Shown piece after piece: positions 8,000 to 26,087 of a DNA stretch of 32,000 nucleotides. Each line of letters starts with the position of its first letter. Within the stretch, counting starts at the first letter, position 1. Location of the stretch: positions 29,343 to 61,342 of the forward strand of contig NZ_JAKJIC010000012.1 of the NCBI RefSeq assembly GCF_021864535.1, given 5' to 3'. The position numbers were made by a program, and so were the translations under genes. A model generated the notes under the pieces. The model worked only from the letters and a program-made list of their open reading frames with translations, did not search any database and was not told the DNA's origin. This DNA is from Oryzibacter oryziterrae (lineage in GTDB: Bacteria; Pseudomonadota; Alphaproteobacteria; Rhizobiales; Pleomorphomonadaceae).

Positions 8000-10438
8000 A
8001 TGATGAACCTCGCCGAATATCGCAACCGCAATCGACGGCTCGCCGATTTTCTGCCTTGGGCCGCGCTGATCGGCACCGGCATCGTGCTCAACAAGGACGG
8101 CGGCTTCCAACGCACCGCATGCTTCCGTGGTCCCGATCTGGACTCGGCTGTGCCCGCCGAACTGGTCGCCGTTGCTGGCCGTCTCAACAACGCCTTCCGT
8201 CGTCTCGGCAGCGGATGGGCGATCTTCGTCGAGGCGCAACGTCATGCGGCCGGCATCTATCCTGCGAACCGTTTCCCTGATGCTGCCTCAGCCTTGGTCG
8301 ATGCCGAGCGGAAAGCCGACTTCGAAGAAGCGGGTAGCCATTTCGAGTCCAGCTACTTCCTGACCTTCACCTACCTGCCACCGGTCGAGGACGCCGCGCG
8401 CGCCGAGATCTGGCTCTACGAGGGCCGCGAGAAGACCGGCATAGACCCGCGTGAGGTGATGACCGGCTTCGCTGATCGCACCGACCGGCTGTTGCATCTC
8501 ATCGAAGCCTTCATGCCCGAATGCCGCTGGCTCGATAACGGCGAGACACTGACCTATCTGCACGGCTGCGTCTCCACGCACCGGCATCGCGTCCGCGTTC
8601 CCGAAACGCCGATGTATCTCGACGCGCTCTTGGCCGATCAGCCGCTCACCGGCGGGCTGGAACCGCGGCTGGGAGCGCAGCACCTGCGCGTCCTCACCAT
8701 CACAGGCTTTCCGACCGCGACGACGCCGGGCCTGCTCGACGAACTGAACCGGCTGGCGTTCCCGTATCGCTGGTCCACCCGCGCCATCCTGCTCGACAAG
8801 ACCGATGCCACCAGGCTGCTCACCAAAATCCGCCGGCAGTGGTTCGCCAAGCGCAAGTCGATCGCCGCGATCCTGAAGGAGGTGATGACCAACGAGCAAT
8901 CCGTGCTCATGGACACCGACGCCTCGAACAAGGCAGCGGACGCCGACCTCGCGCTTCAGGAATTGGGCGCGGACTATGCCGGCATCGCCTATGTCACCGC
9001 CACCGTGACGGTCTGGGACGCCGATCCGCGCGCCGCCGACGAGAAGCAGCGGCTGGTCGAGAAAGTCATCCAGGGCCGCGATTTCACCGCGATGGTGGAG
9101 ACCATCAACGCCGTGGACGCCTGGCTCGGCAGCCTGCCGGGCCATGTCTACGCCAACGTCCGGCAACCACCGATTTCCACACTCAATCTCGCCCACATGA
9201 TCCCCCTCAGTGCCGTGTGGGCGGGGCCGGAACGGGACGAGCACTTTGGCGCCGCCCCGTTGCTCTTCGGCAAGACCGACGGCTCGACCCCGTTCCGGTT
9301 TTCCCTTCATGTCGGCGATGTCGGGCACACGCTGGTGGTTGGTCCGACCGGTGCCGGCAAGTCGGTGCTGCTGGCACTGATGGCTCTGCAGTTTCGCCGA
9401 TATCCCGGGGCTCAGGTCTTCGCCTTCGATTTCGGCGGCTCGATCCGCGCCGCGGCGCTCGCCATGCGTGGCGATTGGCACGATCTCGGCGGCGGGCTGA
9501 CCGACGGATCGGAAACCTCTGTCAGCCTTCAGCCACTTGCCCGTATCGAGGAAACATCCGAACGGGCATGGGCCGGGGACTGGATCGTCGCCATCCTCAT
9601 CCGCGAAGGCGTTGCTATCACGCCAGAGGTGAAGGAACACATCTGGACAGCGTTGACCTCGTTGGCATCCGCGCCGATCGAGGAACGCACGATCACCGGC
9701 CTCTGCGTCCTGTTGCAGTCGAACGACCTGAAGCAGGCGCTCCGCCCATACTGCATCGGCGGAGCGTGGGGCCGGTTGCTCGACGCCGAGAGCGAGCATC
9801 TCGGCACTGCGACGGTGCAGGCCTTTGAGACCGAGGGGTTGATCGGCACCGAGGTCGCGCCTGCCGCTCTGGCCTATCTCTTTCACCGCATCGAGGATCG
9901 GCTCGACGGATCGCCGACGCTCATCATCGTCGATGAAGGCTGGCTGGCGCTCGACGACGAGGGCTTCGCCGGCCAACTCCGCGAATGGCTGAAGACGCTG
10001 CGCAAGAAGAACGCCAGCGTGATCTTCGCCACGCAGTCGTTGTCCGACATTGACGGCAGCGCCATCGCGCCCGCGATCATCGAAAGCTGTCAGACCCGGC
10101 TGCTGCTCCCGAACGAACGCGCGATCGAGCCGCAGATCACCGCCATCTATCGCCGTTTCGGTCTCAACGACCGCCAGATCGAGATCATCGCGCGGGCCAT
10201 GCCGAAGCGCGACTACTACTGCCAGTCCCGGCGCGGCAATCGGTTGTTCGAGCTGGGCTTGTCGGACGTGGCGCTGGCGCTCTGCGCCGCGTCCTCGAAG
10301 ACCGATCAGGCGGCGATCGCCAAGATCGTCACCGAGCATGGCCGCGATGGCTTCCTCGACGCCTGGCTGCGCCATCGCGGTGCCGGCTGGGCCGCCGACC
10401 TCATTCCCGACCTCACCAATCTGGAGATCCGCCCATGA
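8000..10438 (+). CDS. trbE: Conjugal transfer ATPase TrbE (VirB4 family)
   Basis: 812 aa from the ATG at 8000. Walker A 'VGPTGAGKSV' and Walker B 'TLIIVDEGW' are present, followed by 'VIFATQSLSD'. The track ORF start at 7646 overlaps trbD and is rejected. Confidence 0.93.
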   Translation: MMNLAEYRNRNRRLADFLPWAALIGTGIVLNKDGGFQRTACFRGPDLDSAVPAELVAVAGRLNNAFRRLGSGWAIFVEAQRHAAGIYPANRFPDAASALVDAERKADFEEAGSHFESSYFLTFTYLPPVEDAARAEIWLYEGREKTGIDPREVMTGFADRTDRLLHLIEAFMPECRWLDNGETLTYLHGCVSTHRHRVRVPETPMYLDALLADQPLTGGLEPRLGAQHLRVLTITGFPTATTPGLLDELNRLAFPYRWSTRAILLDKTDATRLLTKIRRQWFAKRKSIAAILKEVMTNEQSVLMDTDASNKAADADLALQELGADYAGIAYVTATVTVWDADPRAADEKQRLVEKVIQGRDFTAMVETINAVDAWLGSLPGHVYANVRQPPISTLNLAHMIPLSAVWAGPERDEHFGAAPLLFGKTDGSTPFRFSLHVGDVGHTLVVGPTGAGKSVLLALMALQFRRYPGAQVFAFDFGGSIRAAALAMRGDWHDLGGGLTDGSETSVSLQPLARIEETSERAWAGDWIVAILIREGVAITPEVKEHIWTALTSLASAPIEERTITGLCVLLQSNDLKQALRPYCIGGAWGRLLDAESEHLGTATVQAFETEGLIGTEVAPAALAYLFHRIEDRLDGSPTLIIVDEGWLALDDEGFAGQLREWLKTLRKKNASVIFATQSLSDIDGSAIAPAIIESCQTRLLLPNERAIEPQITAIYRRFGLNDRQIEIIARAMPKRDYYCQSRRGNRLFELGLSDVALALCAASSKTDQAAIAKIVTEHGRDGFLDAWLRHRGAGWAADLIPDLTNLEIRP

Positions 10439-14524: not shown

Positions 14525-15744
14525 GCGAGATCGCCCCCGATCGTCAGAAGCCGGGCGCGGACGACGAGGTCCGGCCGTTGACCGGAGAGCCGGTCGCGCC
14601 GATGCGGCTGCGGCCCGAACCGCCGCGCGTGACGCGCCTGTCGCGAAAGGTGCTGATCGTCCTTGGCTTGCTTGCCGGCACCGGTATCGGCGGCACGTTG
14701 ATCTACGCGCTCCAAACCCGGCACGGCGGCAAGACGAACGAGGAGCTGTATTCGACCGACAACCGGACGACGCCCGACGGCCTCGCCGCCCTGCCAAAGG
14801 ACTATGCCGGTGTCCCGAAGCTCGGTCCGCCGCTGCCGGGCGACCTCGGCCGCCCAATCCTCAGCGCCCAGAACGCCGGCCAGCCCGTACCAACACCGGG
14901 GATCGCGACGCCCAATCCGGGGATCAGTCAGGAAGAGCAGCGCCGCATCCAAGAGCTGGAGGCGGCGCGGACGGCCCGTCTCTTTGCTTCGACCGAGACG
15001 CGGCCAGCCAACACGGCTGTCCCGCAGCCGCAAGCGACAGTCTCGCCGCAGACGGACCTTTCCAGTCTCGGGCTTGCGCCACCGCCCGCGACACCATCAG
15101 CGCAGGATCGTCAGGTCGCGTTTCTGAACCAGACACCCGACAAGCGCACCGTCTCGCCGGATCGCGTCGCCGCTCCCACGTCGGCCAATGTGCTTCAGGC
15201 CGGGGCGGTGATCGCGGCGGCGCTCATCACCGGCATCCGCTCCGATCTCCCCGGCCAGATCATCGCGCAGGTGACGGAGAACGTCTATGACAGCCCGACC
15301 GGGCGCATCCTGCTCGTGCCGCAGGGCACGCGGATCGTCGGCCTGTATGACAATGGCGTGGGCTTTGGTCAGCGCCGCATCCTGCTCGTTTGGAACAGGC
15401 TGATCTTCCCCAACGGCCGCTCGATCGTGTTGGAGCGCCAGCCAGGTGCAGACGCCGAGGGCTATGCCGGGCTCGAAGATGGCGTCGACTACCATTGGGG
15501 TGAGCTGTTCAAGGCCGCGGCGCTGTCAACGCTGCTCAGCGTTGGTGCCGAGGCAGGATCATCGAGTCAGGAGAGTGACATCATCCGCGCGCTGCGCAAC
15601 GGCGCATCCGACAGCATCAACCAGACCGGCCAGCAGATCGTGCAGCGCCAGCTCAACATCGCGCCGACACTGACCATCCGACCGGGTTTTCCCGTCCGTG
15701 TGATCGTCACCCGCGATCTCGTGCTTGAGCCCTACGGAGGCTGA
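14521..15744 (+). CDS. trbI: TrbI (VirB10-like)
   Basis: The GTG at 14521 overlaps the trbG stop (GTGA). The product has a TM segment 'VLIVLGLLAGTGIGGTLIYAL', a Pro-rich linker, and a conserved C-terminal domain with 'GAVIAAALITGIRSDLPGQIIAQV' and 'RPGFPVRVIV'. Confidence 0.88.
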   Translation: MSEIAPDRQKPGADDEVRPLTGEPVAPMRLRPEPPRVTRLSRKVLIVLGLLAGTGIGGTLIYALQTRHGGKTNEELYSTDNRTTPDGLAALPKDYAGVPKLGPPLPGDLGRPILSAQNAGQPVPTPGIATPNPGISQEEQRRIQELEAARTARLFASTETRPANTAVPQPQATVSPQTDLSSLGLAPPPATPSAQDRQVAFLNQTPDKRTVSPDRVAAPTSANVLQAGAVIAAALITGIRSDLPGQIIAQVTENVYDSPTGRILLVPQGTRIVGLYDNGVGFGQRRILLVWNRLIFPNGRSIVLERQPGADAEGYAGLEDGVDYHWGELFKAAALSTLLSVGAEAGSSSQESDIIRALRNGASDSINQTGQQIVQRQLNIAPTLTIRPGFPVRVIVTRDLVLEPYGG

Positions 15745-15745
15745 G

Positions 15746-15976
15746 ATGACAAAGCTGAAACTCGGTCCGATCGCCGACGACAAGCCCGTGAAGGTCACGC
15801 TCGAGCTACCCGCGGGCCTTCACCGCGATCTGATCGCCTATGCCGAAATCCTCGCCTGGGAGGCGGGGCAAACCGCTGCCGATCCCGTTCGCCTGATCGT
15901 CCCCATGCTGGAGCGGTTCATGGCAACGGACCGGGGATTTGCAAAGGCGCGGAGGGTAAAGGCAAACGCGCGTTGA
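15746..15976 (+). CDS. DUF2274-like small protein (terminal gene of the trb operon)
   Basis: The ATG at 15746 lies 1 nt after the trbI stop. The 76-aa product begins 'MTKLKLGPIADDKPVKVTLELPAGLHRDLIAYAE'. From memory this matches the small conserved protein that follows trbI in ICE trb operons. Confidence 0.7.
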   Translation: MTKLKLGPIADDKPVKVTLELPAGLHRDLIAYAEILAWEAGQTAADPVRLIVPMLERFMATDRGFAKARRVKANAR

Positions 15977-16027: not shown

Positions 16028-16189
16028 AGACAGCCTGAGAGGCATCTTTCGTTTCGCATCATTGTGCTGGCAGAAAGGTATTCACGTGGGGTGTTCTCCC
16101 ACAAACGCGAGCCTTTTCAAGGGAAGTGCCATTTTCCTAATGGGTATCTCGTTGTATCATCTGACATGAACAACTGGGAGGATATCCGC

Positions 16190-16417
16190 ATGGAAGGCGA
16201 AGCTGAAGTGGCAGACACGCCGGACGCATTTCTTAAGGCGTTGGCAGAAAGCCTAAAGGGAAAGGAAGGTGTCGATGCCGGAATGGCGGACATCCTTAAG
16301 ACCCACATCTTGAAAGTGGCACCTGCGCAGAACGCCGTCGCTCAGGCCAAGGACGCCATCCTGAAACTCGCAGGCGAACGTGCCAGTCCTCCTAAGCCGG
16401 AGTTGGCCAATGGCTGA
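16190..16417 (+). CDS. Small acidic hypothetical protein, first gene of the uncharacterised cassette
   Basis: 75 aa from the ATG at 16190 (strong gggagga lies 7 nt upstream), or 83 aa from the alternative ATG at 16166. The product looks helical and is Glu/Asp/Lys/Ala-rich. Its stop overlaps the ATPase start by 8 nt (ATGGCTGA). I recognise no family. Confidence 0.5.
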   Translation: MEGEAEVADTPDAFLKALAESLKGKEGVDAGMADILKTHILKVAPAQNAVAQAKDAILKLAGERASPPKPELANG

Positions 16418-18893
16418 TCCTTACTTTCTTCAGTCCTTGGGCCTTTCCGGGTTTCGCGCGTATCTCCAACCGAAGACGTTCGATTTCAGCAAGAAGCGTT
16501 GCTTGGCGATCTTCGCGCCGAACGGCAGCGGCAAATCCAGCGTCATCGATGCGCTGGAATTCATGTTCTCCAAGGACGGAACGCTCGAAAGGCTCGGGCA
16601 GCGCGCCATCAACAACCAGGCTGGACCCGTGGCGCTGGCGCACAATCTGGCTGAGGAGGCGAAGATTGCAGCGGCGGTTACGATCGGCGTGGTCTCGGGC
16701 AAGGATGCCACCAACGGCAGTCGACCGGCGACGGGGGCGAAGCGACCGATACCGGCGGTGGCCACGGCAGTGAACGCCTGCTTCGCGGTGCCGCCGATCA
16801 TCCGCGGGCATGCGCTGCGCACGTTCGTCGAAATCCATACGCCCGAACAGCGCTACGCGGATGTCGCCAATTGGCTGCAGCTCGGCCCACTGGTTGAGGT
16901 GCAGAAGAATATTCGTTCGCTGCGCACGCAGGTGAAGGCTGCGGCCGAGGACGAGACGACGCTGCAGCGCGTGGATACCCAGCTTGCCAAGGAGACGGCC
17001 CAGGGGGTGAAAGCCTGGGATTCGGCGGCGGTGCTTGCCTACGCCAACGTGTCTGTCCTGGCGCCGCTCGATCCGGCGCTGATGCTGGCGACGGTGGCGG
17101 CCGGCGATCCGGCCTATCTCGAACTGGAATCGCGCGCCAAGGCCGAGGAGAACAAGATCGGACTTGCGGGCCTGCGCCAGATCCGTAATGCCGCAGCCGC
17201 TTTGCGAGCGGAGGCGACCGATACGGAGAGCGGCGAGACTGTCGTCAGCGGTGCGATTCCGATCTTTGACGCGGCTGTCGCGGCTCTGTCGGCGGCGGAG
17301 AGTAAGGAAACGGAAGAACGGGGCAAAGCGGCGAGCACCGTGTTTCAGGCTTTGTGGAAAGCCGCAGAGCCGCTTTTTGCCGAAGGGGTGGCGGCACCTG
17401 ACATTTGCCCCGTCTGCGCGACACCTGTCGCGGACACGGCGGCTGGTAGCGCTGAGACGATCCGGGAACACATCGCCAAGCACCTCGAGGAGTTGGCGGA
17501 CTACGCTGCCGCCAAGAAGGCGCTCGACGAGGCCAAGACTGCGGCGACCAAGGCCCATACCCAGTTGGTAGCGGCGCTGCCGGGACTGATTGGCCACCTC
17601 GGCGACGGCGAGGCTGCATTGAAAGCCGATCTTATCGCCTATCAAGCAGGCATCGCCGGCTGGCCTCAGACCGCCGTTCCGGCCTCGGCCGACATTGTTT
17701 CGGCAATCGCCAAGCTGCTCGCTACGCTCGATCAGGCCATCGCCGACATCGAATCGAAGCAAGGCGACCACACCTATATCAAGGCCAAGGCGAAGATCGA
17801 TCGACTGCTGGAGCTACAGACCGAGCGGAACCTTGCGCTGCGAACGCTGGATGAGCTGGGGAAACTCTCCAACGCCTTGACGGCGCAGGCGACGATAATC
17901 TCAGCCGAAATCCGCAAGAAGGTGCAGGCTCTGCTCGACAAGCTTCAGACGCCCATGAACGATATTTACAAGCTGATCCAGGGCGCTGGCGCCACGCCAA
18001 TCCGGCTGGAGCTGCCGGCGGAAGACGACACGAACCAGCAGCGGCTCAACCTCCTGATCGACTTCGCCAAGAACCGCACGGGCGTGCAGCCGGGCGGCTA
18101 TTTGAGCGACTCACAGATCCATTCGGTGGCCCTGGCGTTGCGGATGGCGGCGATCCAGCAGTTTAACGTCGGCGCGCCCATCATCGCGCTGGATGACATC
18201 GTCACCTCCTACGATGCCGATCATCGGCGCACCATTGCCGGGCTCATCGCCACCATGTTCGGCAACTGCCAGATCCTGATCACCACGCACGACGAGCGGT
18301 TCTTCAATTATTTGAAGGATCAGCTCGAGGCGAAAGCGTGGCACTTCACCCGGATCATTGGCCTCGATCCGGCCTACGGGCCGCGTTTCGCTGATCACAA
18401 GGTCAGCGATGAGATGATCGAGGCGCGTTGGGCGGCGGGCCAGTCGGCGGCCAACGAGATGCGCCAGGCCGAGGAGGAATGGCTTCTCGGCATCTGTCGG
18501 GATTTCGGGGTCAGCGTCCGCATCCGACCGCTGGAGAGGGCCTATTCCTACGAACGCAGCGAGTTGGCCTCGGCGCTCGCCGGCCTGCTCAAGGATGCCA
18601 AGCTGGCGCCGGCGCTGGTGCCGGGCGTCAACAACCGGTTCCTCGACAGTTTGGTGAAGGGCGAGATCGAGAATTTCGGCAGCCACTTCCAGGACGGGCC
18701 CTATGGCGACGGTTCGATTGGTGACGAGAAGGCGCGCTGGGAGGAGTTCAAGGCTTTCCGCAGCCAGTTCGGCTGCAAGAAGTGCAGTCGAACGAAATTC
18801 CAGCGGCCCTTTACTCTCAAAAAGCCAGTTTGTGCGCATGATGGCTGCGAGGCGCAGTTCGAGTTTGCGGCAGCGCCGGCAGGGGTGGCTTGA
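16410..18893 (+). CDS. Rad50/SMC-like ABC ATPase with CPVC hook in a long coiled coil and a C-terminal Cys4 zinc ribbon
   Basis: 827 aa. Walker A is 'APNGSGKS' (16515-16538). The sequence between the two ATPase head halves is Ala/Leu/Glu/Lys-rich and coiled-coil-like, with 'DICPVCATP' in it (CPVC at 17406-17417). The C-terminal head half carries 'YLSDSQIHSVALALRMAA' (signature-like), 'PIIALDDIVTSYD' (Walker B / D-loop) and 'ILITTHDERFF' (H-loop). A roughly 200-aa tail ends in CKKC...CAHDGC (18774-18848). Confidence 0.85.
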   Translation: MADPYFLQSLGLSGFRAYLQPKTFDFSKKRCLAIFAPNGSGKSSVIDALEFMFSKDGTLERLGQRAINNQAGPVALAHNLAEEAKIAAAVTIGVVSGKDATNGSRPATGAKRPIPAVATAVNACFAVPPIIRGHALRTFVEIHTPEQRYADVANWLQLGPLVEVQKNIRSLRTQVKAAAEDETTLQRVDTQLAKETAQGVKAWDSAAVLAYANVSVLAPLDPALMLATVAAGDPAYLELESRAKAEENKIGLAGLRQIRNAAAALRAEATDTESGETVVSGAIPIFDAAVAALSAAESKETEERGKAASTVFQALWKAAEPLFAEGVAAPDICPVCATPVADTAAGSAETIREHIAKHLEELADYAAAKKALDEAKTAATKAHTQLVAALPGLIGHLGDGEAALKADLIAYQAGIAGWPQTAVPASADIVSAIAKLLATLDQAIADIESKQGDHTYIKAKAKIDRLLELQTERNLALRTLDELGKLSNALTAQATIISAEIRKKVQALLDKLQTPMNDIYKLIQGAGATPIRLELPAEDDTNQQRLNLLIDFAKNRTGVQPGGYLSDSQIHSVALALRMAAIQQFNVGAPIIALDDIVTSYDADHRRTIAGLIATMFGNCQILITTHDERFFNYLKDQLEAKAWHFTRIIGLDPAYGPRFADHKVSDEMIEARWAAGQSAANEMRQAEEEWLLGICRDFGVSVRIRPLERAYSYERSELASALAGLLKDAKLAPALVPGVNNRFLDSLVKGEIENFGSHFQDGPYGDGSIGDEKARWEEFKAFRSQFGCKKCSRTKFQRPFTLKKPVCAHDGCEAQFEFAAAPAGVA

Positions 18894-19613
18894 ATGGGAG
18901 GGCGTGCGAAACCAGTAGAGCTGGCGACGCGCAGCTTCGAAAAGCAAGGCGACGCCACGGCTTTCTTCAAGGCCATGCTGAACCGCTACCGGCCTGGTGA
19001 GCGAGTGAGTGACGAGGATGGCCTCGACGTTGCCGCCCTTCTCGAACGCCACACCGAATATGTCGCCAAGGTGGGCTGTGGCGTCAGCCATTTCCAGGTC
19101 ATGATGACCGAGCATGGGACGCAATGCTTCCGGATCATCCGCACCGATGGCAGCGGCACGGATTTCTCCTATCCACACTGCATCTCCCAGCGACCACCCA
19201 GCCGTAAGCAGGAGGTCGCTCAAGCCTTTCGACGTGCGGTGCGCTTCGATCTCTACAAGGCCCGCGATAATTTCTTCGCCACCCACAGCGGTTCTGACGG
19301 TTTGGTTTCTTGCGCGGTCACCGGCGAACGCATCGCGCGGGACGAGGCGCATATGGATCACCGTCCGCCAATGACCTTCGAGGTCATCGTGACGACGTTT
19401 CTCTGCGGGCGCGGTCTATCACTCGACGATGTGCCGCTCACGACAGGCAAGGATGATCAAGTCTCGCCCGAGGTGACCGATGACGCCCTGAGCGAGGCGT
19501 TCCGAGCCTACCACGCTGGGATCGCGCGCCTCGATTTCGTGCGGAATACCGTCAACCTGGCCCAAGCCAGTCGGCATCGGCTGAAGGACGGCCGGATCAC
19601 GCTGACAGGATAG
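18894..19613 (+). CDS. DUF3223 (DCL)-like N-terminal domain fused to an HNH-like nuclease motif
   Basis: The ATG abuts the ATPase stop (TGAATG). The N-terminal 'FFKAMLNRYRPGERVSDEDGLDVAALLERHTEYVAKVGCGVSHFQVMMTEHGTQCFRIIRTDGSGTDFSYPHCI' resembles DUF3223/DCL from memory. The C-terminal half has 'CAVTGERIARDEAHMDHRPP' (H-M-D-H at 19350-19361) and a downstream 'FVRNTVNLAQ', an HNH-like H...N pattern. The assignment needs an HMM or structure check. Confidence 0.65.
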   Translation: MGGRAKPVELATRSFEKQGDATAFFKAMLNRYRPGERVSDEDGLDVAALLERHTEYVAKVGCGVSHFQVMMTEHGTQCFRIIRTDGSGTDFSYPHCISQRPPSRKQEVAQAFRRAVRFDLYKARDNFFATHSGSDGLVSCAVTGERIARDEAHMDHRPPMTFEVIVTTFLCGRGLSLDDVPLTTGKDDQVSPEVTDDALSEAFRAYHAGIARLDFVRNTVNLAQASRHRLKDGRITLTG

Positions 19614-19825
19614 CCGCTGCTTACCACGAGAGTTTAGTCGCGCTTTCTCGTCTCATCGACGTACTGGGAAAATATGAGGTCGGCGGCGACGCTGTCGTCG
19701 TCCGGCACCGCTCGGCCAAGCTTCGAGAAGGATGGTGGTGGGCGAAAACCGGGGATTCCCAAGCCAGCCAGCTTGTGATAAAACCTCTGCTACATATTTC
19801 TTTGTCAGAGGAAACGTCACCGTCC

Positions 19826-20446
19826 ATGCCATCCACTAGCGCCCAGCGGCTTCGTGCGCTGAAACTTCTAGAAGCCCGAGGTATGCTCCGGCTGAAGGAG
19901 TTCGTTGCCGAAGGCATCGGCCCGGAGACGCTTGCGCGCCTTGTCCGGGAGGAGGCGGTCATCCGCCCGGCACGTGGCCTCTATCAACTCCCCGACGCAC
20001 ACGTCGAGGCTGCCCATACGCTGGCTGAAGCGGCGGTTCTGGTTCCAAAGGGCGTGGTCTGCCTAACCTCAGCCCTCCAATACCACGAACTGACGCTGCA
20101 GATGCCGTCGGCTGTATGGATGGCGATCGACCGTGCCGCCTGGCGGCCCAAGATCGATTATCCCCCTATTCGGTTCGTGCGCTTCACTGGGGCGGCACTG
20201 ACCGAAGGGGTCGAGCGTCACCGCATCGAGAATGTCGACGTTCCCATCACGGATCCGGCGAGGACAATTGTCGATTGCTTTCGCTACAGGACGAAGATCG
20301 GCCTCGACGTCGCGATGGAGGGACTGCGCGAGGGTCTCCGCCGTCGCCGATGCAAACCGGATCAAATCTGGCGTTACGCGCGCAAGGCGCGGGTCTGGTC
20401 GATCATGCGTCCTTACGTCGAGGCAATGGTGTCTGATGCCGCGTGA
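19826..20446 (+). CDS. abiEi: AbiEi-family antitoxin / transcriptional regulator (type IV TA)
   Basis: 206 aa from the ATG at 19826. 'LLEARGMLRLKEFVAEGIGPETLARLVREEAVIRPARGLYQL' is the AbiEi N-terminal wHTH pattern, and 'GVVCLTSALQYHELT' and 'TDPARTIVDCFRY' are typical of the family. The gene precedes and overlaps an AbiEii gene. Confidence 0.85.
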   Translation: MPSTSAQRLRALKLLEARGMLRLKEFVAEGIGPETLARLVREEAVIRPARGLYQLPDAHVEAAHTLAEAAVLVPKGVVCLTSALQYHELTLQMPSAVWMAIDRAAWRPKIDYPPIRFVRFTGAALTEGVERHRIENVDVPITDPARTIVDCFRYRTKIGLDVAMEGLREGLRRRRCKPDQIWRYARKARVWSIMRPYVEAMVSDAA

Positions 20447-21356
20447 GCCTCGCAACATCGGCGCATCAGTGCGAGCGCGGCTCCTCGATCGGGCACGTGC
20501 CGAGCGATCGGATTTCCAGATTCTCCTGACGCGATATGCGCTCGAGCGTCTGCTCTACCGGCTAAGCGCGTCGCCGCACCGCGACCGCTTCATCCTCAAA
20601 GGTGCGATGCTCTTCGTGACATGGGTCGCCGATCCGTTTCGGCCCACGCGCGATCTGGATCTGCTTGGCCACGGCGACAGCGACGCCGAGGCAATTGCCG
20701 AAACCTTCCGGGCCATTTGTGCGCAGCCGGTCGCCGATGACGGTGTGACGTTTGATGTCGCCGCGCTGATGGCGGCCCCGATCCGTGAGGAGACGGAATA
20801 TGGTGGTGTGCGGGTCCGCACAACGGCAACCATCGCCGGGGCGCGTATTCCGATCCAGGTCGACATTGGTTTCGGCGACGCCATTACACCTGCGGCCGTC
20901 GAGATCGACTATCCCACCCTGCTGGACGCCCCAACGCCGCGCCTTCGCGCATATCCGGTCGAAACGGTGGTGGCCGAGAAATTCGAAGCGCTCGTAACGC
21001 TCGGCGTGGCCAATAGCCGGCTCAAGGATTTCTATGATCTCTGGGTGATCTCCCGAACATTCGAACTTCGCCAGGCTCCCCTTGTCGAGGCAATTCAGCG
21101 GACCTTCGAACGACGCGGAACGGTCCTCCCGTCTGTTGTTCCGGTCGGTCTGACCGATGAATTCGCGGAAGCATGGACCGCTCAATGGCGCGCCTTCCTG
21201 GACCGGGACCGGATGGCAGCCGCACCAGATGCTTTCGCCGCTACCGTCGCCGATCTTCGCCTCTTCTTGATGCCGTTGGTCGTCGGATTGAAGGAGGAAC
21301 GAATTTGGCCGCCGAACGGGCCGTGGTCGCCGGGGGAAGCAATCAATGAGGCGTAG
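20436..21356 (+). CDS. abiEii: AbiEii/AbiGii-family nucleotidyltransferase toxin
   Basis: 306 aa. The ATG at 20436 overlaps the abiEi 3' end by 11 nt. 'FILKGAMLF...RPTRDLDLLGHGD' is the NTase G-x / DxD-type core of AbiEii, and 'KFEALV...RLKDFYDLW' is the conserved C-terminal motif. Confidence 0.88.
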   Translation: MPREPRNIGASVRARLLDRARAERSDFQILLTRYALERLLYRLSASPHRDRFILKGAMLFVTWVADPFRPTRDLDLLGHGDSDAEAIAETFRAICAQPVADDGVTFDVAALMAAPIREETEYGGVRVRTTATIAGARIPIQVDIGFGDAITPAAVEIDYPTLLDAPTPRLRAYPVETVVAEKFEALVTLGVANSRLKDFYDLWVISRTFELRQAPLVEAIQRTFERRGTVLPSVVPVGLTDEFAEAWTAQWRAFLDRDRMAAAPDAFAATVADLRLFLMPLVVGLKEERIWPPNGPWSPGEAINEA

Positions 21357-21432
21357 CGGAACGAGAAAATTTCTCCGTCCCGCATGGCGCGACTGACGAA
21401 GAAAGGAGCCGCTGTCGCGGTTGGGGGGAAGT

Positions 21433-22737
21433 ATGGATAAGAAGCACTTTTATCGCGTAGGCAGCCACTCTGGCGCCTGGGACGATCTACCCACTGACCC
21501 AGATGAACTGGATTCTCTGACCAATAGTGCTCGAAAGCACATCGAGCCGTGGCTCTCTGCTGTCTTCCAAGCAGAGCACCTCAACCTACTGCTCGGCAGT
21601 GGGTTCACCGCAGCGATTGGTTATCTCGCGGGCGTAGGGGCCACAGGCATGGCCAAGGTTACATTTGGCACGTCTTATGACGCCGCCATCGATGCGCACG
21701 CCCAGGCCGGAGCGACGGCCATGAAAAGAGGTGCGGCAAACATCGAAGATCAGTTTCGAAGTGCGCTTGCTCTGCTCGAGGGCCTGGGGGTCATAGACAA
21801 GGGAGCAGAAAAAACTCTTAAGGATGGCATTGATGCCCAGATGTCTGGCTTCCTCACTTCATTATTGAAGACGGAAAGCGGGATTGTTGCTGGAAAGGAT
21901 CCGACATCGAAAGATGCTGCCCAGGGCGCTCTGCAATCATTCCTGCTGAGTTTTGCGAGCCGCGCTGCATCCCGTGAACGTTTGCACGTCTTCACAACCA
22001 ACTACGACCGCCTGATCGAACATGGTTGCGACTTTGCGGGTCTTCGGATCATCGACAGATTCGTCGGCGCGCTGAATCCGGTCTTCCGCGCGTCGCGCGT
22101 TGAAGTTGATGTCCACTACAATCCACCCGGCATTCGGGGAGAACCGCGGTTCATGGAGGGCGTCATTCGCCTGACTAAGCTCCACGGCTCACTGGATTGG
22201 TTTTTTGATAAGGACGAGCGGCGAATCTACCGCAAGGGCATCCCATTCGGAGCGCCTGCGGATCATACCGACATTCCCAAAAAACCCGTCGACACGGTGA
22301 TGATCTATCCCAATCCCGCGAAGGACGTCGAAACAACACAGTATCCCTATGCGGAGCTCTTTCGCGATTTTGCGGCAGCAGCTTGCCGACCTAACGCCGT
22401 TGTCGTGACCTATGGCTATGGTTTCGGCGACGATCACGTCAATCGAGTGCTGCTCGATATGCTCACGATCCCGTCGACCCATTTGGTGATCATGGCCTAT
22501 TCGGCTGACGATCGCCTCAAAGCATTCGTTGAAAAGACGCGAGATGCGCAAGTCTCGTTGCTGATCGGGCCTCATTTCTCGGATCTTGCAACGTTGGTTG
22601 CAAGCTACCTGCCGAAACCGGCGCTCGACTACATATCGGGCCGAATGACAGAATTGTTGAAGCATCGTCCAGGCGATCCAAAACTCAGCGACCCGCCTGC
22701 CGCACCGCCTTCAGTGACTGCAACCGGGCCGGTATGA
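21433..22737 (+). CDS. SIR2-family (SIR2_2-like) NADase-type protein, partner of HerA
   Basis: 434 aa from the ATG at 21433 (the track starts at a TTG at 21421). SIR2-type motifs present are 'LLLGSGFT', 'VFTTNYDRLIE', 'LTKLHGSLDW' and 'TYGYGFGDDHVN'. A HerA gene follows 7 nt downstream, which is the layout of the known SIR2-HerA defence pair. Confidence 0.85.
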   Translation: MDKKHFYRVGSHSGAWDDLPTDPDELDSLTNSARKHIEPWLSAVFQAEHLNLLLGSGFTAAIGYLAGVGATGMAKVTFGTSYDAAIDAHAQAGATAMKRGAANIEDQFRSALALLEGLGVIDKGAEKTLKDGIDAQMSGFLTSLLKTESGIVAGKDPTSKDAAQGALQSFLLSFASRAASRERLHVFTTNYDRLIEHGCDFAGLRIIDRFVGALNPVFRASRVEVDVHYNPPGIRGEPRFMEGVIRLTKLHGSLDWFFDKDERRIYRKGIPFGAPADHTDIPKKPVDTVMIYPNPAKDVETTQYPYAELFRDFAAAACRPNAVVVTYGYGFGDDHVNRVLLDMLTIPSTHLVIMAYSADDRLKAFVEKTRDAQVSLLIGPHFSDLATLVASYLPKPALDYISGRMTELLKHRPGDPKLSDPPAAPPSVTATGPV

Positions 22738-22744
22738 GGCGATC

Positions 22745-24856
22745 ATGACAACTCCAATCGAACGACTGTCGGGCCTTGTTGTCGGTGTCGTCGAGTCGGT
22801 TGCGCCTGACGAAGTTCGGGTGCTCCTTGAACTGGACGCTCCGCACTCCACAGCATTGAATACCGGAGTGCCGGCGGGGTTTCCGCGTCTCAATGGGTAT
22901 GTGATCATCCCAAATGAAGCCGGTGCGACAGTCGCCTACATAACCTGGATTGGGATCGAACGCTCTCCCTATCCAAAGCGCTCTGGCCTGAAAGACTTTG
23001 GCCTGATCGATCTTCCATTTCCACTACGGAAGATGTCGCTATCGCCAGTGGGTACATTGACATCTCGGCGCGACCGCGCTTCGGGAATGACCAGATACGA
23101 ACTCTCTCGTGGCGTGGTAGCGTTTCCGTCAGTGGGGGACCAAGTCCTTATCCCGACACCCCCGCAGGTCGAAGCCATCGTGGGCGCGAGGGACGACGAT
23201 AAGAGAGTCAGAATAGGCTCCTCTCCGATGGCATCGAACGCGGCCATCATGGTCGACCCTGACAAGCTTTTCGGTCGGCACCTGGCGGTATTGGGAAACA
23301 CCGGCAGCGGTAAATCATGCACGGTAGCGGGCCTGATTCGATGGTCCATGGAGGCCGCCGAGAAGGCCATCAAGGATGCCGGCAAGACGGGGGTGCCCAA
23401 CGCGCGGTTTATCATCCTCGATCCAAATGGCGAATACGCCAGGGCCTTCGCTGATCGCGGAGACGAGCTACGGTTGTTTCGCGTTCCACCCGTTGCAGAT
23501 GGAGAGCGACCGCTCGATGTCCCTGCGTGGCTCTGGAGTGGGCACGAGTGGACCGCGGTCGCTCACGCCCAACCAGGGGCGCAACGCCCGTTGCTTATGC
23601 AGGGGCTGCGGGAGCTGAAGGCCGGTCAAACGGAGGGAGTGCCCAGAGAGGCGATGATCCGCCGCTACCTTGGTTCCTATTCGATCCGGATATCGGCGAT
23701 GTTGAACACTGGCACGCAGGCCTTCGCGGGGGCTCCGAGACCGAGATTCGAGTGCGCGCGGCTCCTTGAAACGATCGCGTCAGATTGTTCGCAGTTTGGC
23801 GGGGAGGCCCTCGATACAGCTAGCGGCGCTCTTGCCGCGATTTCCACCACGATCACAGGGATTGTCGATAGCCGACGATCTGGAAATTTCTTCAACGATT
23901 TTGCGATTTCCGACCTGGAAACGATCCGCAGCGCACTGGATGCATTGGCTCAGACGCTGCCGGATATCGGTCACGCAGCCCTCATCAGTGAGGACGCTCC
24001 ACAGTTCTTTGACGTAAACATTCTCGCCGAACATCTTGATCGGGTGGCAACCGAGCAGGGAGGTAACCTCGCAGGGTTTATCTCGACGCTCGGACTTCGG
24101 ATTCGCGGAATGCTCGCCGATCAGCGGCTCGGCGCCGTAATTGGTCGCGACCCGCCGACTTCCTTCGAAACCTGGCTGAAGGATTATGTCGGCGACGATG
24201 GCGCGAGTAACGGCCAGATCGCGGTCGTCGATCTGTCTCTCGTCCCATCCGAAATCGTCCACATCGTTGTGTCCGTTTTGGCGCGGCTGATCTTCGAATC
24301 GCTTCAGAGATACCGCCGCGGCCATCCGAAGGGCCAGACCTTGCCGACAGTCCTCATTCTCGAGGAAGCGCATACATTCGTTCGGCGCGGCAAGGACGAT
24401 GACGGCCCTGCCTCATCTCCGACCCAGCTCTGCCGCGAAGTGTTCGAGCGTATAGCCCGCGAGGGGCGCAAGTTCGGGCTCGGGCTCGTCCTTTCGTCGC
24501 AGCGACCATCAGAGCTTTCTCCAACGGTTCTCGCCCAATGCAACACGTTTCTGCTGCACCGTATCGTCAATGATGCGGACCAGAATCTCGTCGCACGCCT
24601 CGTCCCCGACAATGTCGGTGGGCTCTTGCGTGAGCTGCCGAGTTTGCCTTCCAGGCAGGCCGTTCTCCTTGGTTGGGCAGCGCCGATCCCGGTTCTGGTG
24701 GAGGTGGACGAATTGCCTGATGCACAGAGGCCGCAGTCGGCAGATCCGGATTTCTGGAACGTTTGGACGCTGGCCGAAGAGCGGAATGTCGATTGGGACT
24801 CAATTTCGAAAGCATGGTCGGGCTCTGCTCCGGTGCAACTGCCGGAGGAAGAATGA
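22745..24856 (+). CDS. herA: HerA-like (DUF87/FtsK-HerA superfamily) ATPase
   Basis: 703 aa. An N-terminal barrel-like region ('GLVVGVVESVAPDEVRVLLE') is followed by Walker A 'VLGNTGSGKS', Walker B 'TVLILEEAHTF' and 'GLGLVLSSQRPSEL'. Confidence 0.88.
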   Translation: MTTPIERLSGLVVGVVESVAPDEVRVLLELDAPHSTALNTGVPAGFPRLNGYVIIPNEAGATVAYITWIGIERSPYPKRSGLKDFGLIDLPFPLRKMSLSPVGTLTSRRDRASGMTRYELSRGVVAFPSVGDQVLIPTPPQVEAIVGARDDDKRVRIGSSPMASNAAIMVDPDKLFGRHLAVLGNTGSGKSCTVAGLIRWSMEAAEKAIKDAGKTGVPNARFIILDPNGEYARAFADRGDELRLFRVPPVADGERPLDVPAWLWSGHEWTAVAHAQPGAQRPLLMQGLRELKAGQTEGVPREAMIRRYLGSYSIRISAMLNTGTQAFAGAPRPRFECARLLETIASDCSQFGGEALDTASGALAAISTTITGIVDSRRSGNFFNDFAISDLETIRSALDALAQTLPDIGHAALISEDAPQFFDVNILAEHLDRVATEQGGNLAGFISTLGLRIRGMLADQRLGAVIGRDPPTSFETWLKDYVGDDGASNGQIAVVDLSLVPSEIVHIVVSVLARLIFESLQRYRRGHPKGQTLPTVLILEEAHTFVRRGKDDDGPASSPTQLCREVFERIAREGRKFGLGLVLSSQRPSELSPTVLAQCNTFLLHRIVNDADQNLVARLVPDNVGGLLRELPSLPSRQAVLLGWAAPIPVLVEVDELPDAQRPQSADPDFWNVWTLAEERNVDWDSISKAWSGSAPVQLPEEE

Positions 24857-26085
24857 TCCGTATTCTGCACACGGCTGATTGGCATATCGGTCAAACTTTA
24901 CGCGGGTTCTCGCGGGAGCACGAGCACCATAAGGTGTTTGAGCGGCTTGAAGAGATCGTCGTGGAGCGAGATGTCGACGCCCTCGTTATCGCCGGCGACG
25001 TGTTTGACAGCCAAAATCCCTCCGGGGAAGCGCAACAGCTCTTCTACAATACGCTCGTGCGGCTGAGCCGCGCACATCCGCGCATGGCTATGGTGATCGC
25101 TGCCGGCAACCATGATGCCGCTGGTCGGTTGGAAGCGCCGCGGCCTCTGTTGGAGGCATTCAACATCCGCGTCGTGGGCAATGTTCGGCGGCGTGAAGGG
25201 CGGGTCGAGGCCGCACGCCATCTCGTTCCTATCGCTGACGCAAGCGGTGCGGTAGCTGCTCATGTGCTTGCAGTCTCCTACCCAACCGCAGCGTGCCTTC
25301 CGAATTTGACACGGCTGGATGGTGAAGCAGGCTCGCCCGTCATCGCTGGCGTGCGAAGCCTCTATGCCGAATTGGTCGATACGTTGCGGGGACCGATGGA
25401 TGGTCTACCGTTCGTCCTAACGGGACACCTCCATGTCGCGGGAGGTATCGAATCGGAAGGCGCAGAGCGGCGAATTCTGGTCGGTGGCCAGCATGCCGTG
25501 CCGCATGACGTGTTCCCGGCAGAAGCGAGCTACGTGGCGCTTGGCCACTTGCATAAGGCTCAGGCTATTGGCCGCGATACCGTCCGCTATTCCGGTTCAC
25601 TGATCCCTTTGTCCGCGACGGAGCTGTCCTACGCGCATGGGGTCACTCTTGTGAGCCTCGACGGTACAGCGGTTCTATCTGAGCACATCTCGATTGACCG
25701 GCCAGTTCCCTTCATCCGCCTTCCTGAAGCGGGCGATATGCGGTTGAGCGAATTTGGTGATCATCTGAAAGCAATGGACCTCTCATCGGACCTACCGCTT
25801 CATGAGCGGCCATTCGTCCAGGTCAGGCTTGCCCGCGAAGGGTTGTCTCCCGGGTTCAGAGAGGAGGTCGACCGCATCGCGGAGAGCTTCCCGGTGCGCA
25901 TCGTCGATACCCGTGTTGCAGCAATACCCGGGGCGTTGAATGACGTGATCATCGCCGATCCTATGATGCGGCTGGCGGAAAGAGATCCGGAGGATCTGTT
26001 CAAGCTTGCATTTGAACGCACCCTCGGCGTCGCCCCGGATGCTGCTCACCTGGATGTCTTCCATCGAGCACGGGCGGAGATATAG
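24853..26085 (+). CDS. sbcD: SbcD/Mre11-family nuclease
   Basis: 410 aa. The ATG at 24853 overlaps the herA stop (ATGA), with ggaggaag upstream. All the phosphoesterase motifs I checked are intact: 'HTADWHIG', 'VIAGDVFD', 'AAGNHD', 'LTGHLHV' and 'ALGHLH'. Confidence 0.92.
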   Translation: MIRILHTADWHIGQTLRGFSREHEHHKVFERLEEIVVERDVDALVIAGDVFDSQNPSGEAQQLFYNTLVRLSRAHPRMAMVIAAGNHDAAGRLEAPRPLLEAFNIRVVGNVRRREGRVEAARHLVPIADASGAVAAHVLAVSYPTAACLPNLTRLDGEAGSPVIAGVRSLYAELVDTLRGPMDGLPFVLTGHLHVAGGIESEGAERRILVGGQHAVPHDVFPAEASYVALGHLHKAQAIGRDTVRYSGSLIPLSATELSYAHGVTLVSLDGTAVLSEHISIDRPVPFIRLPEAGDMRLSEFGDHLKAMDLSSDLPLHERPFVQVRLAREGLSPGFREEVDRIAESFPVRIVDTRVAAIPGALNDVIIADPMMRLAERDPEDLFKLAFERTLGVAPDAAHLDVFHRARAEI

Positions 26086-26087
26086 CC

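Follow-up and report, generated by a model that had tools for sequence, protein, structure and literature searches.

Two branches of bacterial immunity are at present treated separately, the DNA-end sensors with released nucleases, as in Lamassu, and the DNA-damage-triggered tRNA ribotoxins, as in RloC. RloC is a single polypeptide of 658-897 aa; a coiled coil that bears a CxxC hook divides its ATP-binding cassette (ABC) head in two, and a domain of about 150-190 aa forms its C-terminus. The nuclease triad of RloC and PrrC reads Arg-X3-Glu-X36-52-His, often with a Ser before the His (PMC2610378). In its own literature, Lamassu is described as combining a Rad50-like LmuB with LmuC, a small protein, and with effectors of diverse kinds. 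A similar logic, in which an ABC ATPase works with a small nuclease, is followed by Septu and retron-Eco7 (PtuA-PtuB) and by PARIS (AriA-AriB), and the outcome in these systems is tRNA cleavage. Hachiman type II is defined by a DUF3223 accessory protein, HamC, for which the literature searched gives no function. Here we describe a locus that shares features with each of these systems. It consists of three co-directional open reading frames (ORFs), ORF1, ORF2 and ORF3, on the plus strand of a 32,000-nt stretch of the Oryzibacter oryziterrae genome (contig NZ_JAKJIC010000012.1, positions 29,343 to 61,342; hereafter the window).

Judged by the PADLOC 2023 models and the literature searched, ORF1-ORF2 is an undescribed variant among hook ATPases, a candidate defence module without a characterised counterpart, and ORF3 belongs to a family that is already known. 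RefSeq labels the products hypothetical protein (ORF1, 75 aa), 'AAA family ATPase' (ORF2) and 'DCL family protein' (ORF3). An earlier note on this DNA had treated the locus as an uncharacterised three-gene cassette. All three genes exist, yet what is conserved as a unit is the pair ORF1-ORF2, to which the HamC-family gene is an optional addition. The positions of all features are collected in Table 1.

A two-gene core with an optional third gene

The distribution of the three genes was surveyed from both ends of the locus. Anchoring on ORF2 yielded 80 metagenome loci, 61 of them informative for ORF1 and 63 for ORF3. A small ORF ended at or overlapped the start of the ATPase gene in 58 of the 61, and in 50 of these 61 loci it was detectably homologous to ORF1, whereas ORF3 was found downstream of ORF2 in only 8 of the 63 and was missing even beside ORF2 homologues of 76-93% identity. 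Distant ORF2 homologues (25-42% identity) also had an ORF of 67-85 aa overlapping their start, and no DUF3223 gene. The conserved, co-evolving core is ORF1 plus ORF2, and it can be followed down to about 25% ORF2 identity.

Anchoring on ORF3, a scan of a genome collection returned 31 loci. The order ORF1-ORF2-ORF3 was syntenic in 17 (identities of 43-88%, 58-94% and 69-98%, respectively), and in two of these ORF2 was separated from ORF3 by an HD-GHKL gene. In the other 14, the ORF3 relative (65-84% identity) had no neighbour from the ORF2 family; of ORF2, L018 retained no more than 26 C-terminal residues. The trio thus does recur elsewhere, as the earlier note had supposed, in these 17 genome loci and the 8 metagenome loci, but it is not obligate. 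In the 24 loci with both genes, the identities of ORF2 and ORF3 to the window proteins co-varied (Spearman 0.78). Exceptions were L020 and L029, with 90% identity for ORF2 against 77-78% for ORF3, and L061, with 75% against 54%; at these loci, therefore, ORF3 variants have been swapped. ORF3 is a portable HamC-type add-on, acquired and mostly co-inherited in this lineage.

ORF2 is a Rad50-like ATPase with a zinc hook

ORF2 matched the Pfam families SMC_N (3e-19), AAA_23 (8e-11) and AAA_13 (2e-9, over residues 350-642). Its AlphaFold2 (AF2) model, with a predicted local distance difference test (pLDDT) value of 89.9, has a split ABC head with a long helical insert, in which broken helices rise over residues ~159-323 to the CPVC loop at the apex and descending helices run back over residues 348-524. 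Past the head, which closes by about residue 660, come a helical domain (667-784) and then a ribbon. A Foldseek search with this model returned Rad50 first (1.5e-13), SMC heads next, and Lamassu LmuB at ~1e-8. The earlier description of ORF2 as an ABC/SMC-type ATPase whose head is split by a coiled-coil-like insert is confirmed by these results, and so is the comparison of its CPVC with the Rad50/SbcC hook. In an alignment of 55 full-length relatives (23-60% identity), both hook cysteines (C333, C336), which the model places in a loop between long helices, were invariant. Also invariant were Walker A residues N38, G41 and K42, as well as S566, D595 and D596; P334, H627, C789, C792, C808 and C813 were at least 90% conserved. 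The Walker B/D-loop pattern DDxxxSxDAD aligned with that of AAA_13/RloC-like ATPases. ORF2 probably dimerises through its invariant zinc hook.

A HMMER search of a library of 1.84 billion 50%-identity representatives found 175 that match ORF2 at E<1e-30, and the named members of the family are Alpha- and Betaproteobacteria. The family was essentially absent from 2.9 million viral contigs, in which a single weak match was obtained. ORF2 fell far below all curated Rad50, SbcC, RecF and SMC thresholds (in NCBIfam, it scored 19 bits with rad50, where 454 are required, and 15.5 bits with sbcc, where 478 are), and no PADLOC (2023) system matched ORF1 or ORF2 at full length. The best PADLOC LmuB match came in two stretches (5.5e-26), the better one joining residues 161-638 to model positions 195-595 of 611; PDC-S06 aligned over residues 329-643 (1.7e-10), and mad3 was also only partial. 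PtuA/PtuB, GajA, AriA, JetC and DndD were rejected as the family of ORF2 because they gave P-loop-level matches only. With the PtuA and AriA profiles confined to residues 7-55 and no PtuB match on ORF3, the earlier decision not to assign the locus to PtuA/PtuB stands.

The ORF2 tail carries a candidate nuclease motif and a Cys4 ribbon

ORF2 had been noted to end in a tail of roughly 200 aa with a terminal Cys4 ribbon, and residues 661-827 do extend beyond the head. In an alignment of 23 C-terminal sequences the four ribbon cysteines were invariant. The tail also holds two near-invariant motifs, N682-x2-R685-x3-E689-x-W-L and N755-x-G-S758-H759, and the most conserved polar residues of ORF2 are those of these motifs. 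R685 was invariant and E689, W691, L692, N755, S758 and H759 were at least 90% conserved among the 23 sequences, with which the 55-sequence alignment agreed except at S758. Apart from its spacing, R685-X3-E689-X69-S758-H759 follows the published RloC pattern, of which R692, E696 and H737 are the representatives in Geobacillus kaustophilus RloC (PMC2610378). The RloC-like AAA_13 proteins have the tail consensus IQNt.RRILE.YF…SWVNDGSH and bear the JGI name 'wobble nucleotide-excising tRNase'. The likeness to RloC may therefore be closer than the earlier note had supposed, with the triad-like motif in the tail of ORF2 and not in ORF3.

Profile comparisons of the tail gave the following results. 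With hhalign, the ORF2 profile and one AAA_13 protein aligned only from Walker B to the H-loop. Against 67 AAA_13 C-terminal sequences the same motif order was recovered at a non-significant probability of 0.8% (E 0.066), and against a two-sequence AAA_13 C-terminal alignment the same order was again not significant; nor were reciprocal hidden Markov model (HMM) searches between the ORF2 and AAA_13 tails. Searches with residues 640-827 in Pfam, in PADLOC (with 23 members) and in a PDB profile search returned only spurious alpha-repeat and weak zinc-ribbon matches, and PADLOC reported no PrrC or PDC-S06 match on the tail of any of the 23 members. At profile level the ribbon itself was weakly similar (E 0.1-1) to zinc-ribbon proteins of the ribosome (L37Ae/eS27) and to TFIIB. 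Our leading hypothesis, as yet unproven, is that ORF2 is a diverged RloC-type ribotoxin equipped with a ribbon and a dedicated small partner. Because many loci have ORF1 and ORF2 alone, the effector is most economically sought inside ORF2.

ORF1 is a conserved small acidic protein

The earlier note had started ORF1 at 16166, which gives 83 aa. The start is most likely the ATG at 16190, 24 nt downstream, because a GGAGGA Shine-Dalgarno sequence lies 7 nt 5' of it, because both RefSeq (WP_237154159) and the Prokaryotic Genome Annotation Pipeline (PGAP) call a protein of 75 aa, and because homologues align only from residue 9 of the longer version on. Length, charge and motif are all kept in the ORF1 family, whose alignment shows the pattern FL..L...L....D..L..IL..H.L...P...AV..A..AI..LA..RA and isoelectric points of 4-5.7. 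Relatives of ORF1 were found in none of Pfam, PADLOC, NCBIfam, PHROGs and a PDB profile search.

ORF3 belongs to the HamC/DCL family

ORF3 matched the PADLOC HamC model PDLC00202 with an E value of 1.5e-55 (residues 5-225 on model positions 2-232 of 245) and is a full-length member of this already catalogued DUF3223 family. It is therefore not unassignable, and the earlier statement that this domain combination could not be assigned to a named system holds for ORF1 and ORF2 but not for ORF3. The DUF3223/DCL-like domain recognised at that time is clear (Pfam E 2e-22 over residues 26-97), and the N-terminal domain matched PDB entry 2K0M both by sequence (2e-26) and by fold (4e-9, with a template modelling score of 0.81 on the target). 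The AF2 model of ORF3 had a pLDDT of 82. PHROG 28887 matched at 2e-31, and cyanophage structures were among the matches.

The second part of the earlier description, an HNH-like HxDH…N motif, fared less well. The motif is present in ORF3, but H153, D155 and N221 vary across the wider family, and the residue before the invariant H156 may be D, N or S. An alignment with true Hachiman HamC, Streptomyces and phage homologues at 31-37% identity (31-79% overall) showed C140, H156, P159, F162, F169, H207, A211 and L213 as the invariant residues of the C-terminal domain. The resulting C-x2-T-G…(D/N/S)H-x2-P…YH resembles a cysteine-poor HNH by visual reading only. Pfam gave no HNH match on ORF3 even at E values up to 10, the PDB profile search gave none, and the HNH-type matches returned by Foldseek were all non-significant. 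This small His-containing domain may be a degenerate HNH. An RNA-directed role of ORF3 is plausible because DUF3223 has RNA-linked roles in eukaryotes: that of the Tetrahymena La protein is needed for tRNA-mediated suppression, and PDB sequence searches place the domain in the largest subunits of Pol IV and Pol V as well.

Genes of the HamC/DCL family lie downstream of, and are often coupled to, HamAB, RloC-like AAA_13, HD-GHKL, Gabija and the module described here. In the genome collection, ORF3 relatives adjoined RloC-like AAA_13/PDC-S06 ATPases (L001, L002, L034), followed GajA-GajB (L018), or lay near PDC-S46 (L021), near a type IIG restriction-modification (RM) gene (L017) or in prophages. 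Plasmid records contributed two HamA-HamB-HamC loci (L147, L148) and, in L146, a further AAA_13-DCL pair whose genes overlap at stop and start. AAA_13 plus DCL is a second, independent combination of a hook ATPase with a DCL protein, with no small ORF upstream of the ATPase gene (checked in L146). These pairs occupy positions 5545-8717 of L001 and L002, 2773-5780 of L146 and 7191-10705 of L034, and their ATPases have a CxxC hook of their own. In fifteen viral contigs (L130-L144) the gene for an ORF3 relative (~70% identity) lay 5' of a GpA-like large terminase gene, in most cases in the order ParB-N/DNA methyltransferase, WPTP-repeat protein of ~410 aa, DCL, a distance of ~1.6 kb, and terminase. 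Five prophage loci (L025, L027, L028, L031, L032) also hold ORF3 relatives upstream of a terminase gene. Of two near-identical contigs, one (L007) has an 86-aa PF01844 HNH gene (8770-9030) called just 3' of its ORF3 homologue.

Comparison with described systems

At least one defining feature fails for each of RloC, Lamassu, Hachiman type II, Septu/PARIS and Rad50-Mre11. ORF2 (827 aa) is similar in size to RloC, has the same head split by a hooked coiled coil and the same DDxxxSxD form of Walker B/D-loop, and carries its Arg-x3-Glu…Ser-His at almost the same positions as the G. kaustophilus triad; RloC-like AAA_13 ATPases likewise pair with DCL/HamC genes. It differs in its extra Cys4 ribbon, in a Pfam AAA_13 match that stops at residue 642, and in a Glu-His spacing of 69 residues against 36-52, and the C-terminal likeness is one of motifs, statistically unsupported. 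The PADLOC candidate PDC-S06, which comprises single-gene AAA_13 proteins, represents a related ATPase lineage with a CxxC hook and DCL pairing, but it does not match ORF2 at full length, lacks a small upstream ORF and is itself a candidate system.

Lamassu (LmuACB, DdmABC or ABC-3C) has the same Rad50-like ATPase with a short coiled coil, zinc hook and small partner, the same variable effector-like neighbours, and the same residence in defence islands and mobile elements, in addition to the partial LmuB profile and fold matches. Its genes are ordered A-C-B, however, whereas here the small protein is followed by the ATPase and an optional third gene, and PADLOC found no LmuA or LmuC match for ORF1 or ORF3. 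LmuB is also shorter (~600 aa), without the extra C-terminal domain and ribbon of ORF2, and its Walker B has Gln in place of the catalytic Glu (DQ; bioRxiv 2025.03.14.643221), whereas that of ORF2 is an invariant DD (D595-D596).

The remaining systems share less of the architecture. ORF3 stands after a large NTPase gene and is coupled to it, just as HamC follows HamB in Hachiman type II, but neither HamA (DUF1837) nor the HamB helicase is adjacent, the partner here being an ABC ATPase with a small protein. Septu/retron-Eco7 and PARIS offer the same logic, and tRNA cleavage would fit the RNA-linked DUF3223 and the RloC-like motif of the module; their ATPases, however, are without a zinc hook, and ORF3 has no PtuB or AriB match. 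Rad50, the best fold match, has the same CPVC hook tetrad, and an SbcD-like gene recurs nearby, but the coiled coil of ORF2 is much shorter, Rad50 is without the C-terminal domain and ribbon, and the nearby SbcD-like gene has an SbcC-like partner of its own.

A probable defence module and its possible mechanism

ORF1-ORF2 is most likely a defence module of the abortive-infection type, because it rides plasmids, integrative and conjugative elements (ICEs) and integrase-flanked islands among anti-phage systems. The location given in the earlier note, a defence island beside AbiE and SIR2-HerA on a mobile element, agrees with the annotation of the window, in which ORF3 is followed by AbiEi/AbiEii, SIR2-HerA and then an SbcD-like plus SbcC-like pair, and with other loci. 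Neighbours at the latter include MmeI, type III and type IIG RM systems, an SpbK-like TIR protein, PDC-S73, a Cas4-like nuclease, GajB, DRT and integrases or resolvases. Decayed copies are frequent: ORF2 is split in two in L006, L007 and L023, ORF2 and ORF3 are truncated in L036, L038 is rearranged, and the plasmid matches H15, H16 and H52 are likewise frameshifted, truncated or interrupted. Such decay suggests accessory, possibly costly genes.

By analogy with RloC, Rad50 and LmuB, the hook ATPase would sense a DNA signal (breaks, free ends or invading DNA). It would then turn on an effector activity in its own C-terminal domain, which carries the R-x3-E…S-H motif and is followed by the Cys4 ribbon. 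ORF1 would serve as a bound silencer or adaptor, and ORF3 would presumably add or tune a nucleic-acid-directed step. This explanation, a two-gene core of ORF1 and a Rad50/RloC-lineage ORF2 that acts in defence by abortive infection with its own C-terminal effector and has ORF3 as an add-on, is our best one, and we give it an even chance of being right. What the data establish is how the genes are built and arranged, their conservation and co-occurrence, the fold class of ORF2 and the family of ORF3; the role in defence, the signal, the nuclease activity and the task of ORF1 are inferred. A bolder version would make ORF1-ORF2 a new defence family, in which a zinc-hook ATPase with a highly diverged RloC-like ribotoxin domain and a ribbon is held in check by a small acidic partner, and HamC/DCL a universal RNA- or tRNA-directed terminal accessory of unrelated NTPase systems and of phages too; we put this forward tentatively, as unlikely.

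Several points weigh against our preferred explanation. The defence role is assigned through guilt by association, with neighbourhoods that have no background control. No profile test gives significant homology of the C-terminal domain of ORF2 to the RloC/PrrC nuclease domain, and the spacing between R-E and H lies outside the published range. RloC is a single gene, whereas the ORF2 family has its small upstream ORF in nearly all loci (58/61), and for ORF1 no relative of known function was detected in Pfam, PADLOC, NCBIfam or the PDB. Mrr-STAND, HD-GHKL, DUF3223, TIR, HNH_5 and lipase genes recur downstream, so that the effector could be external, and the recurrent SbcD/SbcC-like linkage would also fit a role in DNA repair or element maintenance.

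Alternative explanations

An external effector is the core of the main rival, which we regard as unlikely: as in Lamassu or Septu, ORF2 and ORF1 would only sense DNA, and killing would fall to an exchangeable next gene. That gene would be ORF3 in the window, as an HNH-type nuclease with tRNA as its possible target, on the model of PtuB in retron Eco7, and elsewhere an HD-GHKL, Mrr-STAND, TIR, HNH_5, lipase or PDDEXK/RNase-H-like protein. The genes beside the core are indeed variable and effector-like, and often lie 0-100 bp away on the same strand. An Mrr_cat-nSTAND3 protein (~775 aa, PADLOC PDC-S73) is encoded co-directionally downstream of ORF2 in 9 metagenome loci, following ORF2 or ORF3 (L066, L067, L071-L073, L086, L116 and L054 among them). 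An HD-CE plus HATPase_c (GHKL) protein of ~875 aa, without a PADLOC match, lies downstream of ORF2 in 4 more (L051, L053, L056, L057) and also in L020 and L029, where a DCL gene follows with overlapping or abutting stop and start. Single cases were HNH_5, an SpbK-like TIR protein, a lipase, a metallophosphatase and a type III methyltransferase, and a PDDEXK/RNase-H-like protein recurs upstream in ORF2-anchored loci. In many loci, however, no gene on the same strand follows ORF2 (L039, L042 and L046, for example), and the Mrr-STAND proteins are self-contained sensors. For ORF3 in particular, an effector role would agree with the abutting or overlapping ORF2/ORF3 junctions seen across lineages, with the co-varying identities, with the partial LmuB profile and fold matches, and with the combination of Rad50-like ATPase, small protein and diverse effectors described for Lamassu. 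Yet relatives of ORF3 at 65-80% identity occur without ORF2, its HNH fold is unconfirmed, LmuA, LmuC and PtuB match neither ORF1 nor ORF3, and both the gene order and the DD Walker B depart from Lamassu.

The occurrence of ORF3 without ORF2 leads to a second alternative, which we consider still less likely, namely that ORF3 is functionally independent of the other two genes and the cassette is mere adjacency. ORF3 would then be a stand-alone gene that accumulates in phages and as the 3'-terminal gene of defence operons. It might act alone in defence or anti-defence, serve phages as a nuclease that packages or processes DNA, or be a selfish gene for a nuclease. The 14 of 31 genome loci without ORF2, which include prophages and other defence islands, fit this view, as do the 15 viral contigs with a relative upstream of the large terminase gene, the PHROG 28887 and cyanophage structure matches, the close ORF2 homologues (76-93% identity) without ORF3, and the swapped variants in L020, L029 and L061. 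Against it stand the tight stop/start coupling to an upstream NTPase gene in at least five different systems, the correlated divergence of ORF2 and ORF3, and the fact that ORF1-ORF2 is the commonest neighbour (17 of 31 loci) in the subfamily at or above 65% identity.

Least probable, and in our view very unlikely, is that ORF1-ORF2, perhaps with ORF3 and the SbcD/SbcC-like pair, serves not immunity but DNA-break processing or maintenance of a conjugative element (for instance by dealing with the ends of transferred DNA, in recombination or in keeping a plasmid stable). Although ORF2 has a Rad50/RecF-like head and a PGAP Gene Ontology term for double-strand break repair, SbcD-/SbcC-like linkage recurs in several variants and orientations, and the module stands right after the Trb operon in the window and beside partition and relaxase genes on plasmid p195_2, its contexts vary with no single element type (integrase islands, resolvase-flanked loci, chromosomal contigs of metagenome-assembled genomes), its neighbours are mostly defence genes, its frequent decay suits accessory, possibly costly genes, and ORF2 lies far below the curated SbcC, Rad50 and RecF thresholds.

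If ORF1-ORF2 does protect against phages or plasmids, as our preferred explanation has it, a widespread family would be added to the Rad50/SMC-like branch of bacterial immunity, and the Lamassu-type sensors and the RloC-type ribotoxins would be linked. For HamC, the survey gives a first hint: the family is not Hachiman-specific but portable, is coupled to many NTPase-based systems and is found in phages as well, so that what HamC does becomes a sharper question to test, and one of wider reach.

Organisation of the locus and an insertion hotspot

ORF calling, with the junctions read in the sequence, bore out the reported arrangement of overlapping or abutting stops and starts. The stop of ORF1 and the start of ORF2 overlap by 8 nt (ATGGCTGA at 16410-16417), and the ATG of ORF3 abuts the stop of ORF2 at 18893/18894 (18891-18896). 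The genes upstream of ORF1 are Trb genes of a P-type type IV secretion system (T4SS), and the GC fraction is 0.58-0.59 at 15.5-17 kb against 0.65-0.69 upstream, in keeping with the placement of the locus in AT-richer DNA right after a T4SS operon. Promoter and terminator scans scored the real sequence no better than shuffles. Two further ORFs, one of 83 aa between trbI and ORF1 (15725-15976) and one of 191 aa after the SbcC-like gene (30138-30713), were without a PADLOC match.

Table 1. Features of the ORF1-ORF2-ORF3 locus (window coordinates)
Feature	Position	Strand	Description
ORF1	16190-16417	+	75 aa, small acidic helical protein, isoelectric point about 5
ORF2	16410-18893	+	827 aa, Rad50/RloC-like ABC ATPase: zinc-hook coiled coil, C-terminal helical domain, Cys4 ribbon
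Walker A / P-loop PNGSGKSS	16515-16538	+	ORF2 residues 36-43
CPVC zinc-hook motif	17406-17417	+	ORF2 residues 333-336, apex between ascending and descending helices
ABC head C-terminal half	18096-18302	+	YLSDSQ (S566), IIALDD (D595, D596), SYDADHR, TTHDE (H627)
ORF2 C-terminal helical domain	18390-18764	+	residues 661-785; possible RloC/PrrC-type nuclease domain
Cys4 zinc ribbon	18765-18854	+	C789, C792, C808, C813 of ORF2
ORF3	18894-19613	+	239 aa, DCL/HamC family
ORF3 DUF3223 domain	18903-19190	+	residues about 4-99
ORF3 C-terminal domain	19191-19610	+	residues 100-239; invariant C140, H156, P159, H207

The earlier note had stated that the ATPase has no Mre11/SbcD partner. None is found among its immediate neighbours, but the statement needs qualifying because SbcD-like genes recur near ORF1-ORF2. 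In the window, an SbcD-like gene (Metallophos plus SbcD_C) and a gene for a 1261-aa SbcC-like ATPase (AAA_23, SbcC_Walker_B) occupy 24763-29873. In sister loci this pair comes directly after ORF3, and divergent SbcD-like genes were found near ORF1-ORF2, in differing orientations, at L019, L047, L060, L064, L065 and L087.

The interval between ORF3 and the SbcD-like gene (19614-24856 in the window) had four alternative contents among these sister loci. It was empty in three, with a 165-nt spacer in L013 and with the spacer deleted in L009 and L050, where the stop of ORF3 overlaps the SbcD ATG. It held AbiE only in L010, L015 and plasmid p195_2; SIR2-HerA only in L008, in which a remnant of the 3' end of AbiEii is kept; and both AbiE and SIR2-HerA in the window, L011 and L012. 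Just 3' of ORF3, a stretch of ~100 nt was homologous in all of them. Because of these four alternative contents behind a common first ~100 nt, the interval is an insertion hotspot for defence genes, and it could be mined for new defence systems.

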